Shown piece by piece: positions 2,730-58,700 of a stretch of 64,000 nt of DNA. How positions within the stretch are numbered: position 1 is the first letter of the stretch; the number at the start of each line of letters is the position of its first letter. The position numbers were made by a program, and so were the translations under genes. A model generated the notes under the pieces. It was not told the origin of the DNA and ran no database searches. It was given only the letters and a program-made list of their open reading frames with translations. Source of the stretch: Mobula hypostoma (lineage: Eukaryota); the NCBI RefSeq assembly GCF_963921235.1, contig NC_086097.1, forward strand, positions 137,766,001 to 137,830,000. The letters run 5' to 3'.

Positions 2730-3280
2730 TCATTGTGGTATGCGTCAATACAAAGTTTGCTAGTCACTTCTCACTGTTCTATATATTTCATTTGGAGATT
2801 GTTACCTAAAACACAAACTTCTACAGATGTAATGTGGAGAGCATTCTGGCAGGCTACATCACTGTCTGGTATGGTAGGGTTGGGGGAGTTACCGCATGGG
2901 ATCGTAAGAAACTATAGAAAATTGTAAAACTAGTCAACCTCCTCATGGGTACTAGCCTCTGCAGTAGGCAAGATATCTTCAAGGAGCAGTGCCTCAGGGG
3001 TGGCATTCATTATTAAGGACCCCCAAGACCCTGGACATACCCTCTTCTCATTGTTACTGTCAGGAAGGAGGTACAGAAGCCTGAAGGCACAGACTCAGCA
3101 ATTCAGGGACAGCATCTTCACCTCTGCCATACTTTCCCCCCCTGTTTTTGCACCATTTTTGATTTAACTATTATAACGCACATGCACACACACTATTATT
3201 TTTCTGTATTGCATTGTACTGCTGCTGCTAAGTTAAGTTTCACCGTATATGTGGGTGATATTAAAGCTGATTCTGATTTG
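2730..3280 (+). mobile_element. Rex/Babar-type LINE 3' fragment, degenerate
   Basis: aacttctacagatgt...gagagcattctg...tggtatgg (NFYRC..ESIL..WYG), ttactgtcaggaaggaggtacagaagcctg, and a ctgattctgat tail. Confidence 0.75.
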
Positions 3281-3296
3281 TATGATTTGAACAAAG

Positions 3297-3371
3297 GCTT
3301 GCAAAGATGCCGCCAGTCAGAAGGTTGATGCCGGAGTTATGGTGGAAGCTGCCAAGTCTAAAATTCATCAG
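3297..3371 (+). CDS. CNOT10: CNOT10 coding exon (first in window): ACKDAASQKVDAGVMVEAAKSKIHQ
   Basis: AAG acceptor at 3294-3296 and GTATGT donor at 3372; 75 nt, phase 0/0. EAAKSKIHQ matches vertebrate CNOT10. An in-frame TGA at 3288 limits any upstream extension. Confidence 0.85.
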
Positions 3372-3719
3372 GTATGTGAATAATTTATCTTCAGCGGGTC
3401 TTCCTTTTGTTCAAATATAAGTGGTGTGTGGTGGGGGATTAGTCAGGATGTATAAAGTGAACAAAATTGAAGGGTTACGATATAGGGTTATGACACTGTT
3501 TTCAGTGGCAGGAGGGACTGTGTTGAAGGACACTGATTTAAAATGAAGAATATAAGAACCAAACCTGACTTAATTTTCTTGAAAGCTGTGTTTGAAATGC
3601 TGGTGAAAGTAGTTTCAATAATAAGCCTCAAAAGTTAAAGGAAATGAAGGCAGAGCCATGGGGATGTAGTTGTAAAGGGAATGATGGACTGAATGGCCTT
3701 TGCTGTAAAGTGGTAATTG

Positions 3720-25820: not shown

Positions 25821-26490
25821 GTGCAACACTTCACTTGTGAGTCTGTTTGGGTCATCTATGGCATCTGGTGCTCCCGGTGCGGCCTCCCCTACACTGGTGA
25901 AACCCGACGCAGATTGGGGGACCGCTTCGTTGAGCACCTCCGCTTTGTCCGCCACAACAGACAGGATCTCCCAGTAGCCACCCACTTCAACTCTGCTTCC
26001 CACTCCCATTCAGATATGTCCATACATGGCCTCCTCTACTGCCATGATGAGGCTAAACTCAGGTTGGAGGAGCAACACCTCATATACCGTCTAGGTAGTC
26101 TCCAGCCCCTTGGTATGAACATAGAATTCTCCAACTTCCGGTAATTCCCTCCCCGCTCCCTTCCTCTATCCCTATGTCACTCTGCCCCCTCCCCCAGCTC
26201 CCTCATGGTTCCTCCTCCTGCCACTACCCATTGTGTTTTCCCCTATTCCTCCTTCACCTTTCCAGCCTATCACCTCCCTGCTTCCCCTCCTCCACCCCTT
26301 TATCTTTCCCCTTACTGGTTTTTCACCTGGAACCTACCAGCCTTCTCCTTCCCACCCTCCCCCCACCTTTATAGGGCCTCTGCCCCTTCCCTCTACAGTC
26401 CTGACGAAGGGTTCTAGCCCGAAACGTCGACCGATCTTTTCCACGGATGCTGCCTGACCTTCTGAGTTCCTCCAGTGTGTTGTGAGTGTT
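25821..26490 (+). mobile_element. Penelope-like element 3' part: GIY-YIG endonuclease, polypyrimidine 3' UTR and pLTR hammerhead
   Basis: VIYGIWCSRCGLPYTGETRRRLGDRFVEH...VATHFN...EEQHLI..LGSLQPLGMN in ORF 25740..26144, then a C/T-rich tract and the hammerhead motif. Confidence 0.92.
26398..26431 (+). ncRNA. Minimal type I hammerhead ribozyme (Penelope-type)
   Basis: gtc-CTGACGA-a-ggg(ttctag)ccc-GAAA-cGTC^gac. The core is intact, stem I is 3 bp, and the very short stem III region is typical of dimer-dependent PLE hammerheads. Confidence 0.8.
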
Positions 26491-43289: not shown

Positions 43290-44750
43290 GAGATTAGTCA
43301 TAGCCTCACACAGCTCAACTGGTCTATGCTGACCTAGGTTCTCATCTATGCTACTTCCAATTGCCTGCTTTTGGCCCGTACCTCTCTAAACCTTTTCTGT
43401 GCCTGTGCAAGTGCCTTTTAAAAATGTACCTGCCTCGAGCACTACTTCTGGCAGCTCATTCCATGTACTAACTATCCTCTGGATGAAAAAGTTCCCCCTC
43501 AGGTTCCTATTTAATCTTTCCCCTCAAGTCTTTAACCTACGCCCTTTAGTCCTTGATTCTCACACCCTGGCGAAAGTCCATACACATTGACCCCATCTGT
43601 GGTTGTTGACTTCAGAAGGAGTAGCGGACCACACGACCCAATTTACATCGGTGGTGTGCAAGTGGAACAGGTCAAAAGCATTAAGTTCCTCGGGGTTAAT
43701 ATTACAAATGACCTGACTTGGACCAACCAAGCAGAGTCCACTGCCAAGAAGGCCCACCAGCGCCTTTACTTCCTGAGAAAACTAAAGAAATTTGGCCTGT
43801 CCCCTAAAACCCTCACTAATTTTTATAGATGCACCGTAGAAAGCATTCTTCTAGGGTGTATCACAACCTGGTATGGAAGTTGTCCTGTCCAAGATCGGAA
43901 GAAGCTGCAGAAGATTGTGAACATGGCACGGCATATCACACAAGCCAATCTTCCGTCCTTGGGCTCACTTTACAGCGCATGCTGTCGGAGCAGTGCTGCC
44001 AGGATAATCAAGGACACGACCCACCCAGCCAACACACTTTTCGTCCCTCTTCCCTCTGGGAGAAGGCTCAGGAGCTTGAAAACTTGTACGGCCAAATTTG
44101 GGAACAGTTTCTTTCCAACTGTGATAAGACTGCTGAACGGATCCTGACCCAGATCTGGGCCGTACCCTCCAAATATCCAGACCTGCCTCTTGTTTTTTTT
44201 TGCACTACCTTACTTTCCATTTTCTATTTTCTATTTATGATTTGTAATTTAAATTTTTAATATTTACTATCAATCTGTAATCCAGGGAGCGGTAAGCGCA
44301 GAATCAAATGTCGCTGTGATGATTGTACATTCTAGTATCAATTGTTTGGCGACAATAAAGTATAAAGTAAAGTAAATATTACCACTCATTCTCTTACATT
44401 CCTAAAGTCCCAGCCTGCTAAACCTCACTCCATAATTCAGTCTCTCAGTCCAGTCAACATCTTCATACATCTCTTCTGCACTCTTTCCAGCTCAGTGGCA
44501 ACTTCCTCATAGGTGAGTGACCAACACTGAACACAATATTCCAAATGCAGCCTCACCAAGTGCAAGCTAACATCTCATCTTCTATATTCAGTGCCTTGAC
44601 TGATGAAGGCCAGCTTGCCAAAGGCCTTCCTCAACCTATTTACTTGTGTTGCCACTTTCAGGGAACTATGTATTTGTACTCCTTGGACCCTCTGTTCTGC
44701 AACACTCCCAGCACCCTGCTGTTCACTATGAATGACCTACCCTGATTCAT
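43290..44750 (-). mobile_element. Old CR1 3' fragment split by a younger Rex/Babar insertion
   Basis: CR1 3' end (ggcagctcattccat...gaaaaagttccccctcagg) at 43290-43586 and its continuation (cccagcctgctaaacctc...ggtgaccaacactgaacacaatattccaaatg) at 44376-44750. Confidence 0.8.
43587..44375 (+). mobile_element. Young 5'-truncated Rex/Babar-type LINE
   Basis: Open 186-aa ORF with VVDFRR, KFLGVNIT, LTNFYRCTVESILLGCITTWYG and NSFFPTVIRLLN; (AAGTA)n tail. Confidence 0.9.
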
Positions 44751-49149: not shown

Positions 49150-50611
49150 ATTTACTTTACTTTATTGTCGCCAAACAATTGATACTGGAGCGTACAATCA
49201 TCACAGCGATATTTGATTCTATGCTTCGCGCTCCCTGGAGTACAAATCGATAGTAAATATTAAAAATTTAAATTATAAATCATAAATAGAAAATAGAAAA
49301 GGAAAAGTAAGGTAGTGCAAAAAAACTGAGAGGCAGGTCCGGATATTTGGAGGGTACGGCCCAGATCCAGGTCAGGATCCGTTCAGCAGTCTTATCACAG
49401 TTGGAAAGAAGCTGTTCAAGTCTTCAAGCTCCTGAGCCTTCTCCCGGAGGGAAGAGGGATGAAAAGTGTGTTGGCTGTGTGGGTCGTGTCCTTGATTATC
49501 CTGGCAGCACTGCTCCGACAGCGTGCGCTGTAAAGTGAGCCCAAGGACGGAAGATTGGTTTGTGTGACGTACTGCACCGTGTTCACGATCTTCTGCAGCT
49601 TCTTCCGGTCTTGGACAGGTCAACTTCCATACCAGGTTGAGATGCATCCTAGAAGAAAGCTTTCTATGGTGCATCTATAAAACTTAGTGAGAGTTTTAGG
49701 GAACAGGCCAAATTTCTTTAGCTTTCTCAGGAAGCAAAGGTGCTGGTGGGCCTTCTTGGCAATGGACCCTGCTTGGTTGGACCAAGTCAGGTCATTTGTG
49801 ATATTGACCCCGAGGAACTTAAAGCTTTTGATCTGTTCCACTTGCGCACCACCAATGTAAATGGGGTTGTGCGGTCCGCTACTCCTTCTGAAGTCAACAA
49901 CCAATTCCTTCATCTTGCTGACGTTGAGGGATAGGTTATTATCTTCGCACCATGCCACCAGGTTCTTAATTTCCTCTCCATTCTAAACTCATCATTACCC
50001 GAGATACGGCCTATAATTGTGGTGTCATCAGCAAACTTATATATTGAGTTCGATGGAAACTTGGCTACACAATCATGGGTGTACAGTGAGTACAGCAGGG
50101 GGCTGAGTACACAGCCTTGTGGGGCACCGGTGCTCAGAGTGATTGTAGAGGAAAGCTTGTCCCCTATTCTTACAGCCTGGGTTCTGTCTGTGAGGAAGTT
50201 GAAGATCCAGCTGCAGATCTGAGTGCTAAGGCCCAGGTTCTGGAGCTTAGGAATCAGTTTATTTGGAATGATGGTATTAAAGGCGGAGCTGTAGTCAATG
50301 AAAAGGAGCCTTACGTATGTGTCTTTATTCTCCAGTTGTCCTAAGGTGGAATGTAGGGCCAGAGAGATGGCATCTGCTGTCGACCTGTTGTTCCTGTAGG
50401 CGAATTGCAAAGCATCGGGGTTGACCGGTAGGCTGTGGTTGATGTGTGCCATAACCAATCGCTCGAAGCACTTCATAGCAATTGATGTCAGAGCCACAGG
50501 TCGATAGTCATTCAGGCATGCCACCTCGCTCTTCTTCGGCACCGGGATTATCGTTGCCTTCTTAAAACACGAGGGGATCTTAGACTGAAGCAAGGAGCAG
50601 TTGAAGATGTG
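49150..50611 (-). mobile_element. Young Rex/Babar-type LINE (RT domain to 3' tail) nested in an older plus-strand Rex remnant (~49010-49145 and ~50612-50705)
   Basis: [47 protein letters not shown] and KFADDT. The 3' part closely matches 43587-44375 in inverted orientation. Confidence 0.92.
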
Positions 50612-51746
50612 TAGTAATTTTATGCTTTTGCACAATATTGCTGCTGTACATCAACAGATTTCATGACATATAAGTCAGTGATAATAAGTTTGATCCTGAT
50701 TCTGAATAAGGGCCAGAGACCCGATTTCAATCCTGACCTCATATGCTGTCAGTGTAGTGATTGCACATTCACCAATGTCCAAGAATGGGAAAGCTGACAA
50801 AAAGTGGAGGGCACAGCCCACTCCATCACAGAAAAATCCCTGCCCGCCTTTGAACACATCTGCAAGGACTTCTGCCAGGAGGAAGACCAAGTTGTAGGAA
50901 TACAGAGGGAAAGGGAAAAGGTTTGAGGAGATTGCTGTTCTCAGAATCAGCATGGAACTCATGAGTTGATTGGCTTCTTTCCATGCATTAATCAGTAAAT
51001 GCAATGGGGTACTTTCTCCAATATGTTAGCTAAAATTTACTATAACTGATTTCTTTATCTCTTTGCTGTTAGTGGGACTTCACTGGGTGCACATTGGCAG
51101 CAGCATTTCCAAGTCACTGCAGTGAATGGGCATGGAAGGTCCTACTCCACTGCTTGTTAGGTATTTTGAGATATCTCTCAGGACATGATGGCATTGCAAA
51201 AATAAAACCCTTTCTATCTTTCTTTTGTCATCTAAACTACAATTGCAATGAATAGATCCTATTGACGCATTGCCAGTGTTACATACAGAGCAGGTGTCTG
51301 TCCTTTCCCTCTGGGTGCAAAAGGGCTTAGGAAACAGCTCAATATTGCCAGGAATATCTATTGTTTTTTAGATGGTAAATAGGATACTAGTTTTAATTGT
51401 GGTCACAAGACTTGCATCTGTTTTAACAATAACATTTCACAAGCCTTGGAGAAAAACCCCAGTTCCATTTTGACTGCTCAAGGAACATCAAAGTTAATTG
51501 AAGAATTATTTTGTAGTGGGATAATACTAATGTTTACCCTTTATAGAAGCAGTGGGACAAGAGGAGGTCATCCACCTCTTCAAGTAGTTCTCTGTTTTCA
51601 ATTAAACCATGCCCCGTCTAATCACCCCTTTCCTAAGAAACACTAACAATTTTGCTTTTGAAAGCACCAACCACACCCTGACTCCCTAAGCCCACAGCTT
51701 TCTGGGGGAATGGTCAGGATTTCCCTTGCCGACAGTCCTAAACAGA

Positions 51747-52993
51747 GTACTTCGAATTTTTCTCTTGGTTTGACACAGTGGAACGGATCTTGTCTTGTGC
51801 AGCTCCTCCCACCCCTCCCCTCCCCACACACCAACCTTGGAGAGGAAGATTAGCAATCTCTTCAGGAGATGGCTGGGGCTGCCAAAGAGCCTGAGCAGCA
51901 TCGCACTCTATGGACACCACAACAAACTGCAACTGCCCTTCAAATCCTTGGAGGAAGAATTCAAGGTGACAAGAGCCAGAGAAGTGGTACAGTACAGGGA
52001 CTCAAGTGATCCAAAGGTAGCTGAACCATACCACGTCCAGTTTCTCATCCAGGCAGTATATGATGTGCTTCCAAGCCCATCAAACCTGCACACATGGGGC
52101 AAGGCAGAGTCACCTGCGTGCCCACTGTGCTCCAAGCGAGGAACCCTGGAGCACATCCTCAGCGGCTGCGCAAGGGCACTTGGTGAGGGACGGTACAGGT
52201 GGAGGTATGATCAGGTCCTGAAGACCATCGCTGAAGCCGTCAGTGCAGGAGTTGAGTGGGTGAAGCGGTCCCGACCCTCCAAGCAGACCATTGCCTTTGT
52301 CAGAGCTGGGGAGCAGCCAATACCTGCCAAAAGAACATCTGCAGGCATTCTGACCTCTGCAAGGGACTGGCAGCTGTTGGTGGACCTCAAATGGCAGCTG
52401 AAGTTCCCCAACCATATCGCAGCCACCACCCTGCAACCAGACATTGTCCTGGTGTCTGAGTCCACTAAGCAAGTGGTGCTGCTGGAGCTGACAGTCCCAT
52501 GGGAAGATAGCTTGGAAGAGGCCTTTGAAAGGAAGCTCTCCAAGTACGCAGGACTGGTCAGCAACTGTCAGCAGGCTGGATGGAGAGCGAGGTGTCTCCC
52601 AGAGGAGGTTGGTTGTAGGGGATTCGTAGCCTGTTCTTTAGCTAGAGCCTTCAGCAATTTGGGCATCGAGGGAGAGAGGAAGAGGAGAACCATCCGCAGT
52701 ATCACCGATGCGGCAGAGAGGGCCTGAAGATGGCTGTGGCTCAAAAGAGGGGAGCCATGGAGTCATAAGTAGCTAACCATCTGGACACAAGCTGGGGTCT
52801 GATCAGCCCTGGCTGGGTCACCTGGAGAAGGTTGTATGATGTTGAAAGACCCGAAACACCCGATGATTCCAGGGACATCACTGAAGATGTGTCCAGAGGC
52901 ATCAGTAGATGTCTGTACACAGAACTTTTCTCTTGCTTTGACACAGTGGAAGGAATCTCGTGCAGCTCCTCCCACCCCTCCCCACCCACCAAC
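51747..52993 (+). repeat. ~80-90 bp imperfect direct repeat (51747-51835 and 52915-52993) bracketing the HERO-like element
   Basis: gtac...ttttctcttg(g/c)tttgacacagtggaa..atct..gtgcagctcctcccacccctcccc..caccaac occurs on both sides. Confidence 0.9.
51836..52914 (+). mobile_element. 5'-truncated HERO-like (R2 superfamily) non-LTR retrotransposon with CCHC knuckle and restriction-like endonuclease
   Basis: ORF 51795..52727 has LFRRWLGLP (post-RT), CPLC..GTLEHILSGC (CCHC), WRYDQV (RHD-like) and PDIVL...LELTVPWE..RKLSKY (PD-(D/E)xK REL domain). A ~190-nt 3' UTR follows. Confidence 0.9.
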
Positions 52994-53569
52994 TGCAGCT
53001 TCATATCACCCTGCTTTCTCTGTTTCCCAGTTCTGCTGAAAAGTCTTCAGCTCGGAAGATAAACTCTTTTTTTCTCTCTTCACGGATGATGTCTGACTTG
53101 CTGAGTATTTCCTACAATTTCTGTTTATATTTCAGGTTTTCGGCATTTGCAGTCTTTCAACTTTCAGGCAGTTTCTATGGACATTGTTTTGTATAAGAGT
53201 AGTTTGATATTTATTAATAAAATTATACTTTTAAAATGCTACAGCCTTTGTATATGAATATGAAAGTGCAAGGACCATGCCTCGATCTATCATTTTTACC
53301 TAAGCACATAAATTAGACCACCTCTTCGTCTTTAATATCCAAGAGAATGCACACAGACTTTCTGTAGCCTGATGATTTGAGCCTCGTGGTACAGAGATTC
53401 CACTGAAGGATTGGTACTGTTCCCACCAGGGCCTTCTCATCCCGTTCACAAAGTGCATTGGACAGACAGATTGACATCTCACGTACTCTGTTTAATCCTG
53501 ATGCCTGTAACCGTTCTGGGAATGCAATTGCCCAGCCTGCATTCTTTGGGAGTTCCTGAAAGCAACATC

Positions 53570-55704: not shown

Positions 55705-58700
55705 ATGGTAAGAGAGGGCTCCCTCACCTCTGCCCTTCTGACCCTCAACACAGCTGCCCCTCAGGGCTGTGTCCTAAGCCCCCTCCTTTACTCTCTGTAC
55801 ACCCATGACTGTGTTGCCACCCACAGCTCCAATCTGCTAATTAAATTTGCTGATGATACTACATTGATTGGCCTAATCTCAGATAATAACGAGATTGCTT
55901 ACAGAGAAGAAGTCATCACCCTGACAGAGTGGTGTCAAGAAAACAACCTCTCCCTCAATGTTGCAAAAACAAAGGAGCTGGTTGTAGACTAGAGGAGGAA
56001 TGGAGACAGGCTAATCCCTATTGACATCAATGGATCTGGGGTTGAGAAGGTGAACAGCTTTAAGTTCCTTGGCATACACATCACTGAGGGCAGGACTGGC
56101 AGCTTAATATTCCAGGGTTCCGATGTTTCAGATGTGATCGAGGCAGAGGAATGAAAGGTGGCGGAGTGGCATTGCTTGTTAGGGAAAATATTACAGCAGT
56201 GCTCAGGCAGGACAGATTAGAGGGCTTGTCTACTGAGTCCTTGTGGGTGGAGCTGAGAAACAGGAAAGGTATGGCCACATTAGTGGGATTGTATTACAGA
56301 CCACCCAATAGTCAAAGAGAATTGGAAGTGCAAATCTGCAGAGAGATAGCAGGCAACTGCAGGAAACATAAAGTTGTGGTGGTAGGGGATTTTAATTTTC
56401 CATATATTGATTGGGTCTCCCATACTGTCAGGGGTCTAGATGGTTTAGAGTTTGTAAAATGTGTTCAAGAAAGTTTTCTAAATCAATATTTAGAGGGACC
56501 AACTAGAGGGGATGCAATATTGGATCTCCTGTTAGGAAATGAGTTAGGACAAGTGACAGAAGTCTGTGTAGGGGAGCACTTTGGTTCCAGTGATCATAAC
56601 ACCATTAGTTTCAACTTGATCATGGACAAGGATAGATCTGGTCCTAGGGTTGAGGTTCTTAACTGGAAGAAGGCCAAATTTGAAGAAATGAGAAAGGATC
56701 TAAAAAACGTGGATTGGGACAGGTTGTTCTCTGGCATGGATGTGATCGGTAGGTGGGAAGCCTTCAAAGCAGAAATTTTGAGAGTGCAGAATTTGTATGT
56801 TCCTGTCAGGATTAAAGGCAAGGTGAATAGGAATAAGGAACCTTGGTTCTCAAGGGATATTGCAACTCTGATAAAGAAGAAGAGGGAGTTGTATGACGTG
56901 TATAGGAAGCAGGGAGTAAATAAGGTGCTTGAGGAGTATAAGAAGTGCAAGAAAATACTTAAGAAAGAAATCAGGAGGGCTAAAAGAAGACATGAGGTTG
57001 CCTTGGCAGTCAAAGTGAAGGATAATCCAAAGAGCTTTTACAGGTATATTAAGAGCAAAAGAATTGTAAGGGATAAAATTGGTCCTCTTGAAGATCAGAG
57101 TGGTCGGCTATGTGCGGAACCAAAGGAAATGGGGGAGATCTTAAATAGGTTTTTTGCATCTGTGTTTACTAAGGAAACTGGCATGAAGTCTATGGAATTA
57201 AGGGAAACAAGTAGTGAGATCATGGAAATTGTACAGATCGAAAAGGAGGAGGTCCTTGCTGTCTTGAGGAAAATTAAAGTGGATAAATTCCCGGGACCTG
57301 ACAGGTTGTTCCCTCGGACCTTGAAGGAGACTAGTGTTGCAATTGCAGGGGCCCTGGCAGAAATATTTAAAATGTCGCTGTCTACAGGTGAGGTGCCGGA
57401 GGATTGGAGAGTGGTTCATGTTGTTCCGTTGTTTAAAAAAGGATCGAAAAGTAATCCGGGAAATTATAGGCCAGTAAGTTTAACGTCGGTAGTAGGTAAG
57501 TTATTGGAGGGAGTACTAAGAGACAGAATCTACAAGCATTTGGATAGACAGGGACTTATTAGGGAGAGTCAACATGGCTTTGTGCGTGGTAGGTCATGGA
57601 GTTTTTCGAGGAGGTTACCAGGAAAATGGATGAAGGGAAGGCAGTGGATATTGTCTACATGGACTTCAGTAAGGCCTTTGACAAGGTCCCGCATGGGAGG
57701 TTAGTTAGGAAAATTCAGTCGCTAGGTATACATGGAGAGGTGGTAAATTGGATTAGACATTGGCTCGATGGAAGAAGCCAGAGAGTGGTGGTAGAGAATT
57801 GCTTCTCTGAGTGGAGGCCTGTGACTAGTGGTGTGCCACAGGGAGTGGTGTGTCATCTATATCAATGATCTGGATGATAATGTGGTAAATTGGATCAGCA
57901 AGTTTGCTGATGATACAAAGATTGGAGGTGTAGTAGACAGTGAGGAAGGTTTTCAGAGCCTGCAGAGGGACTTGGACCAGCTGGAAAAATGGGCTAAAAA
58001 ATGGCAGATGGAGTTCAATACTGACAAGTGTGAGGTATTGCACGTTGGAAGGACAAACCAACGTAGAACATACAGGGTTAATGGTAAGGCACTGAGGAGT
58101 GCAGTGGAACAGAGGGATCTGGGAATACAGATACAAAATTCCCTAAAAGTGGCGTCACAGGTAGATAGGGTCGTAAAGAGAGCTTTTGGTACATTGGCCT
58201 TTATTAATCAAAGTATTGAGTATAAGAGCTGGAATGTTATGATGAGGTTGTATAAGGCATTGGTGAGGCCGAATCTGGAGTATTGTGTTCAGTTTTGGTC
58301 ACCAAATTACAGGAAGGATATAAATAAGGTTGAAAGAGTGCAGAGAAGGTTTACAAGGATGTTGCCGGGACTTGAGAAACTCAGTTACAGAGAAAGATTG
58401 AATAGGTTGGGACTTTATTCCCTGGAGCTTAGAAGAATGAGGGGAGATCTGATAGAGGTATATAAAATTATGATGGGTATAGATAGAATGAATGCAAGCA
58501 GGCTTCTTCCACTGAGGCAAGGGGAGAAAAAAACCAGAGGACATGGGTTTAGGGTGAGGGGGGAAAAGTTTAAAGGGAACATTAGTGGGGGGCTTCTTCA
58601 CACAGAGAATGGTGGGAGTATGGAATGAGCTGCCAGACGAGGTGGTAAATGCGGGTTCTTTTTTAACATTTAAGAATAAATTGGACAGATACATGGATGG

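Follow-up and report, generated by a model that had tools for sequence, protein, structure and literature searches.

Comparison among relatives shows that the 3' untranslated region (UTR) of an RLE-type non-LTR retrotransposon of Mobula hypostoma encodes a predicted hammerhead fold with a backbone that opens between A9 and G10.1; inserted there, helix A and hairpin B form a near-perfect four-way junction. That the fold is real and clade-wide can be regarded as practically certain from its conservation and covariation; it very probably has the geometry of the hammerhead core, and the predicted ribozyme probably cleaves in some setting. The best explanation would be hammerhead cleavage followed by re-joining, giving a circular template that is copied from an internal start. 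To this reading we assign a probability of roughly one half, and somewhat more if the dimer variant described below is counted with it.

The host element and the comparative sample

The window, as the whole analysed stretch of 64,000 nucleotides (contig NC_086097.1, positions 137,766,001 to 137,830,000) is called here, contains a 5'-truncated copy of the element (Table 1). By blastn this copy corresponds to unit positions 2236-2425 and 2734-3637, with an internal deletion near 52020, and its translation runs into a premature stop at 52725-52727, the family stop being at 52770-52772. A single open reading frame (ORF) with reverse transcriptase (RT), CCHC knuckle and C-terminal restriction-like endonuclease, recognised as motifs in the translation, identifies the element as RLE-type; a profile match to zf-RVT at the ORF end (E 4e-4) lies under the curated cut-off. 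Homologous proteins, from fishes and lancelets, bear the RT domain (PF00078). A full-length copy from the same 3.5-Gb genome (L031) has an open frame of 1166 aa and shares 65% protein identity over 986 aa with AAN12398.1, which we take to be Tetraodon Zebulon, an element presumably of tandem structure. HERO and Zebulon are used here as presumed labels, the former being also that of the first-pass annotation; besides the protein identity, our element has in common with them the RLE type, the lack of site specificity (as far as its flanks show) and the head-to-tail arrangement. Genome-wide, a 27-mer spanning the predicted cut has 1763 exact matches, and a search of viral contigs found no relatives.

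The window copy is flanked by an imperfect direct repeat of ~75 bp (51754-51832 and 52923-52995) that resembles a very long target-site duplication. Such a duplication was rejected as a family trait, as it was found at high identity in 0 of 40 other copies. Fragments of other LINE families lie in the window at 20-1087, 49910-50650, 56088-58628 and 43557-44147 (endonuclease, RT and ALKBH8_N-type matches). At 26393-26435 the window also holds a minimal hammerhead of Penelope type, in which CUGANGA is followed by an additional base and stem III is reduced to a vestigial palindrome. The first-pass annotation had mentioned such an extra base in the window's Penelope hammerheads, in the plural: one (26401) does have it, and a scan of the window found only that one.

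To avoid selecting on the RNA, 79 metagenome loci were picked by protein similarity (39-83% identity), 20 of which were ineligible because the match fell short of the C-terminus or less than 200 nt lay downstream. The full architecture was parsed in 49 of the 59 eligible loci, and a covariance model placed the motif in most of the remaining ten: further downstream in two (L083, L116), as degenerate copies in three (L099, L109, L111), as weak partial matches in two (L076, L048) and, in L112, as a downstream copy cut by the contig end together with a whole copy upstream, while L110 and L115 gave no match to the model. The contig of L112 shows a terminal redundancy of 111 nt (unit 3713) and assembles as a circle or tandem. 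The non-redundant set comprised 45 rows, 42 of which (leaving out L095, L106 and L107) were used for alignment A2, a structure-blind MAFFT alignment with boundaries from the parse; A2 is not fully independent, because its rows are those that the parser accepted.

Table 1. Features of the element copy and of its predicted fold, in window positions
Feature	Positions	Strand	Basis or remark
5'-truncated RLE-type (HERO/Zebulon-like) non-LTR retrotransposon copy	51833..52922	+	blastn against the 3637-nt unit from L120
C-terminal part of ORF, with CCHC zinc knuckle and PD..D/ExK-like endonuclease	52019..52772	+	translation, homologues
Helix A, 5' strand; entry arm of four-way junction	52780..52789	+	10/10 pairs with 52888-52897
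Hairpin B; junction arm	52790..52814	+	89% paired, 6/6 pairs covary
Stem II, 5' strand (upstream; 52815 = G10.1)	52815..52819	+	5/5 pairs with 52848-52852
Helix E, 5' strand; links stems I and II at their distal ends	52821..52827	+	91% paired
Stem III, 5' strand, with U16.1 (52835) and H17 (52836)	52830..52836	+	predicted cut after 52836
Stem I, 5' strand	52837..52842	+	92.5% paired, 5/5 pairs covary
Stem II, 3' strand (C11.1 = 52852); G12 A13 A14 A15.1 (52853-52856); stem III, 3' strand	52848..52861	+	
Helix E, 3' strand	52867..52873	+	pairs with 52821-52827
Stem I, 3' strand, and core C3-A9 (CTGAAGA, 52881-52887)	52875..52887	+	T, G, A, G, A invariant in A2
Helix A, 3' strand; immediately 3' of A9, not stem II	52888..52897	+	comparison, RNAalifold
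Short terminal hairpin and fixed 3' end of insertions	52898..52922	+	predicted fold, 3' ends of copies

A predicted hammerhead core completed from upstream

In the window copy, the first-pass annotation had pointed to the segments GGTTG-TA (52830-52836), TGATGT (52837-52842), GACCC (52848-52852), GAAACACCC (52853-52861), ACATCA (52875-52880), CTGAAGA (52881-52887) and GTGTC (52889-52893), all of which are present at these positions, and had read them as a hammerhead whose conserved blocks stand in an order that is not a circular permutation of the known types. The comparative data bear out this reading, namely that the core is conserved and that it lies in the 3' UTR of a non-LTR element of RLE type. 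Stems I and III covary among relatives. The expectation that standard descriptors would miss the motif was equally confirmed by Rfam scans: nothing in the window reached gathering score, and 12 loci gave no hammerhead or credible match at E<=10.

Judged against the consensus core defined in PMC3088659, the nucleotides C3 U4 G5 A6 N7 G8 A9, G12 A13 A14 A15.1 and U16.1 H17 are intact in the window and conserved in A2, with N7 free among relatives. Two flanking pairs on which the parser did not depend are also kept, C15.2-G16.2 in 42 of the 45 rows and G10.1-C11.1 in 38, a standard pair occupying 10.1-11.1 in 42. The parser demanded CUGANGA, GAAA and U16.1, and not H17, a position held by T in 17 rows, C in 15, A in 13 and G in none, with 19 inferred changes on the protein tree; U17, present in those 17 of 45 rows, makes a slower cleavage triplet. 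The core stands out from the rest of the UTR, 15 of the 16 most conserved columns of A2 being core or core-flanking, among them the upstream G whose partner is C11.1. As in hammerheads, three helices abut the core through paired 1.1-2.1, 10.1-11.1 and 15.1-16.1, and all of them covary, stem II doing so through its upstream partner.

It is in stem II that the wiring proves stranger than had been proposed, because this stem is completed from upstream via the four-way junction. The local stem II of the first-pass annotation (GTGTC with GACCC), with its 4/5 pairs in the window copy, turned out to be a coincidence: it is 53% paired in the 42 rows of A2, no better than slid controls, cognate strands pair at 0.53 vs 0.47 for non-cognate ones, and at least 4/5 pairs occur in 6/45 rows at the proposed offset and in 13/45 at the best of four offsets. 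The upstream strand behaves quite differently, as it is 93% paired in A2 with a covariation of 0.75 and 53 double changes, vs 27-54% paired in slid controls. Covariation is thus found in stems I and III and, instead of the local stem II, in the upstream one. An ordinary type-SGC hammerhead built with the local stem (52848-52852 with 52889-52893) could still draw on the 4/5 pairs of the window copy and on an S-G-C order that is a validated ribozyme form (as reported in PMC10085705). However, a pairing at slid-control level, together with the better, covarying partners that both of its strands have elsewhere, largely refutes this alternative, which we hold to be extremely improbable.

Helix A, hairpin B, the upstream stem II strand and helix E had all escaped the first-pass annotation. 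Hairpin B sits exactly between the 5' strand of helix A and the upstream strand of stem II, and the RNA enters and leaves the fold through helix A, at the A9/G10.1 step. Helix A is 81% paired in A2, with 8/8 pairs changed on both sides. RNAalifold, run by itself on A2, recovered this helix together with hairpin B and the upstream stem II. The best pseudoknot-free fold of the window copy assigns 52815-19 otherwise. For helix E the cognate score has a median of 16 vs 10 for non-cognate strands; with its 91% pairing and the linker of 0-8 nt that separates stem I from stem II across relatives, it provides the tertiary link between these stems. In A2 the internal loop between helix E and stem III is semi-conserved, with GA on one side and TGA on the other, and may be a kink or a tertiary contact.

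As a whole, the seven-helix model is 88.8% paired on A2, with 33/36 pairs changed on both sides, vs 29-45% paired for slid controls. When sequences were shuffled with the core kept in place, 0/1800 scored >=60 (best 53), vs 43/45 real rows, which have a median of 78. The top 24 column pairs by MI-APC were all predicted pairs, in an anchored alignment that makes this result partly circular. With the junction linkers freed (0-3 nt each), zero length was best or tied in 28/45 rows and within 5 points of the best in 40/45. In this four-way junction, stem II would be expected to stack on the A9-G12 pair and helix A on hairpin B.

In the known type, A9 is joined directly or via 1-2 bases to 10.1. 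Here A9 enters helix A and G10.1 lies on another strand, and we know of no tested hammerhead that lacks this covalent link. Its absence lowers the membership of the fold in the known type, not the claim of hammerhead-like working. A single inserted base is tolerated at the A9/G10.1 step in viroid and Penelope hammerheads, according to the accounts in PMC3705267 and PMC4209133.

The loop of hairpin B, in the window TGATCA at 52800-52805, offers a self-complementary hexamer in 30 of the 45 rows (two of them GACG-loop hairpins), vs a control mean of 4.3 and maximum of 10. Its centre undergoes double changes (TGATCA, TGGCCA, TGTACA), which no pairing possible within one hairpin would explain, and this hints at pairing of two copies. 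A GACG tetraloop, which we take to resemble retroviral kissing loops, caps the hairpin in five rows (L051, L058, L063, L081, L088). The proposal of the first-pass annotation that the motif might be a pseudoknotted or dimer-assembled hammerhead gains from this covarying loop some support for its dimer part. In its strict form, the dimer alternative holds that loop B kissing nucleates a domain-swapped dimer in which two copies, in one precursor or in two RNAs, complete each other's cores while a lone copy stays silent. The palindromic loops and the GACG tetraloops fit this picture, as does the dimeric action of Penelope hammerheads described in PMC4209133. The single case of L234, a genomic copy, also agrees with a dimer: at its 5' end, unit position 1 is directly preceded by the final 80 nt of the unit in inverted orientation, as though two cDNAs had been initiated at one internal site. 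However, the hexamer is absent in 15/45 rows, all helices can be drawn inside one molecule and the palindrome might serve instead as a signal at the level of DNA or protein, so a dimer-only ribozyme appears distinctly unlikely.

Junctions, ends and template of the genomic copies

The junctions were studied in 98 copies, corresponding to 98 of the 99 exact matches to the unit-start motif (from 151 with <=1 mismatch). In 89 of these 98 copies holding the unit start, the sequence runs upstream into a preceding 3' end, and the junction shows neither inserted nor missing bases. Of the 98, 58 extend across the upstream cut site and 51 contain the upstream ribozyme in full, in a tally where L171, L211 and L227 were corrected by hand and the downstream ribozyme was checked for completeness in a minority of copies. 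Among 40 long copies, 13 continue into the preceding 3' end, with 10 of the 13 crossing the upstream cut site, and 9 extend upstream beyond helix A, giving the retrozyme-like arrangement in which two ribozymes flank one unit. Ten pairs of copies with matching 5' ends have no host flank in common. Head-to-tail junctions extend across the clade: at least 12 divergent loci have the unit-start motif behind the tail (9 by pattern, the rest by eye), in contigs where assemblers can favour such junctions.

The first ~80 bases of the unit (L031 981-1060) are conserved among elements only 42-58% identical in protein, and were found after the tail in L045, L053, L057, L066, L067, L068, L073, L078, L105, L108 and L112. 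This conserved start is possibly a translation-initiation or protein-binding element, which would be of interest if the mRNA were an uncapped circle.

The 3' ends of the copies are fixed, 86 nt past the predicted cut (61 of 70 copies were readable, one of which, L027, is itself a junction). The base that follows is C in 35/61, against a background of 0.21, C being the first base of the next unit, and five non-junction copies match at least 4 bases of the next unit past their 3' end. The 3' ends therefore spill into the start of the next unit, indicating that the template probably continues beyond its apparent end. The terminal segment at 52898-52922 would then be the internal start of reverse transcription.

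According to the circular-template model, the transcript would arise by read-through from a genomic copy that slightly exceeds one unit and thus has two ribozymes, and both ribozymes would cut after GUH to free a 3.6-kb unit. The two ends of this unit would be the two halves of one ribozyme held together by ~28 bp (helices A, II, E and III), so that the halves would stay paired, which would favour re-joining into a circle by the ribozyme or by a host ligase. The RT-endonuclease of the element would prime internally, 86 nt past the joint, and copy round the circle, sometimes for more than one turn, thereby regenerating head-to-tail insertions that exceed one unit. More speculatively, hairpin B may use its self-complementary loop to pair two ribozyme copies or two RNPs. 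Internal priming has been shown for a Penelope RT, for which the account in PMC11167929 indicates that hammerhead cleavage is not needed for insertion in vitro.

Cutting at two sites and re-joining fits a template that is intact at junction and cut site, often exceeds one unit and is renewed each generation, the joint of the circle being the genomic head-to-tail sequence. The first-pass annotation had seen in the retention of both sides of the cut a sign that cleavage must be partial, reversible or bypassed; re-joining into a circle would best explain it. Back-splicing as another route to a circle was rejected by reasoning, as it would lose its own signals. What speaks against the circular template is that the junction removes the covalent A9-G10.1 link and that the ring formed by helices E and III would be geometrically tight. 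The slower U17 triplet, the other use of 52815-19 in the pseudoknot-free fold and the dispensability of hammerhead cleavage in the Penelope assay weigh on the same side.

A scan for RT stops at the cut site gave 1 match, and its controls gave 2 and 0, whereas 1763 exact matches run across the site. The absence of a stop is expected for a sealed circle and equally for no cutting. A non-cutting recognition fold, perhaps derived from a hammerhead, might bind the protein of the element and set the RT start, with head-to-tail copies arising from tandem master loci or exact template jumps. It would account for the retention of both sides of the site in all copies without a stop, for the holding of the strand after A9 in helix A and for the 3' UTRs of RLE elements being known as protein-binding folds (cf. 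PMC12222951). It leaves unexplained, however, why the catalytic G5, G8 and G12 do not vary, why N7 is free, why G is avoided at N17 and why a G10.1-C11.1 pair is kept from another strand. Template jumps usually leave extra bases, whereas 0/89 junctions carry any, and no long arrays were seen among copies holding the unit start. We consider such a fold unlikely.

Another alternative maintains ribozyme activity and dispenses with circles: the upstream copy would free a 5' end from a read-through transcript, as the HDV-like ribozyme of R2 does, and the downstream copy would be kept uncut by protein or folding. The evidence from the core serves this alternative just as well, and two copies, L216 and L160, have their start at the cut site. 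However, among the 61 copies that extend as far as the upstream site, 58 run through, which linear RNA from the cut cannot template, and 3 end within 3 nt of it, vs ~1.7 expected. Longer-than-unit copies would, moreover, erode over generations, making activity without circles rather improbable.

A mild excess of copies begins within ~3 nt of the unit start (6/98, with ~2 expected by a hand estimate), which could represent a linear 5' end there. No fetched locus held two whole units, the longest upstream extension being ~1.6 kb. The rate of 5' truncation was estimated by hand at 0.4-1.1 per kb in the first round (counts 2778, 510, 318, 151) vs ~2-5.5 beyond the unit, a rise that is suggestive only and not counted as evidence, because 15/40 long copies also end in unit positions 119-300.

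Relation to known systems and significance

The non-circularly permuted S-G-C order was correctly recognised by the first-pass annotation and is not unprecedented, as it is that of type SGC in Eckert et al. 2023 (PMC10085705), whose representatives (HRIMA-1 and variants) are reported to cleave in vitro. As presented there, type SGC shares with the fold of the element the order S, G, C, the same core letters, a short linker between stems I and II and an extra helix joining these stems, here helix E. In that work, stem II follows directly after CUGANGA and block C is assumed uninterruptible, whereas the element has an interrupted block C, takes G10.1 from an upstream strand and adds two helices that create a four-way junction. 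The type-SGC examples described in it come only from metatranscriptomes and metagenomes, unlike a fold that sits in an animal retrotransposon. The split-block wiring is none of the six permutations set out in that work (PMC10085705). The published scheme treats CUGANGA and the stem II strand as indivisible, and descriptor searches could therefore not find the split form. No report of a hammerhead with a junction at A9/G10.1 was found in the open full-text literature, including a keyword-only search of the supplement of Eckert et al., whose alignments may hold something similar.

The minimal hammerheads of Penelope-like elements, as described in Cervera and de la Pena 2014 (PMC4209133), lie likewise in the tail of an autonomous retroelement with head-to-tail copies, and have likewise an insertion at the 9/10.1 step with a kept G10.1-C11.1. 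They differ in their type I order, one-base insertion and vestigial stem III, and their hosts belong to the GIY-YIG class, which has no relationship with RLE LINEs. To account for copies of these elements that exceed one unit, the same paper proposed a circular template (PMC4209133). In retrozymes, on the accounts of PMC4918200 and PMC7229834, a pair of hammerheads excises a unit, which becomes circular and is then reverse-transcribed to copies of variable length, as the model would have it here; however, retrozymes are small, non-coding and non-autonomous, use classical type I/III hammerheads and form circles seen by experiment, in contrast to those deduced here. The HDV-like ribozyme of R2 (as characterised in PMC3774820) is also a self-cleaving RNA in an RLE-type non-LTR element without an obvious promoter, cleavage being a prediction in our case. 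It is of another class, lies at the 5' end and sets the 5' end of copies, whereas the element studied here has its predicted cut site within the 3' UTR, and its copies continue past that site. Neither a ribozyme nor a circle was found described for HERO or Zebulon in the open full-text literature and Rfam.

Read jointly, the data may describe one more natural hammerhead wiring, the seventh, which has a four-way junction in its core and serves an autonomous LINE-type clade. This clade would replicate via a ribozyme-made, protein-coding circular RNA of 3.6 kb; reverse transcription would be target-primed at an internal position, and a kissing-loop arm would pair the two ribozyme copies, a combined picture to which we give slightly less than even odds. 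The motif is carried by thousands of copies in a single vertebrate genome and occurs in almost all of the relatives studied. If cutting is true, the hammerhead core would accept a whole junction at A9/G10.1, and engineering could use this step as a natural docking site. A true circle model would mean that an R2-related RT copies circular RNA from an internal start. This would give a concrete and testable account of head-to-tail retroelements, hitherto only proposed, for Penelope elements, and would represent a new template format for RT-based gene insertion.
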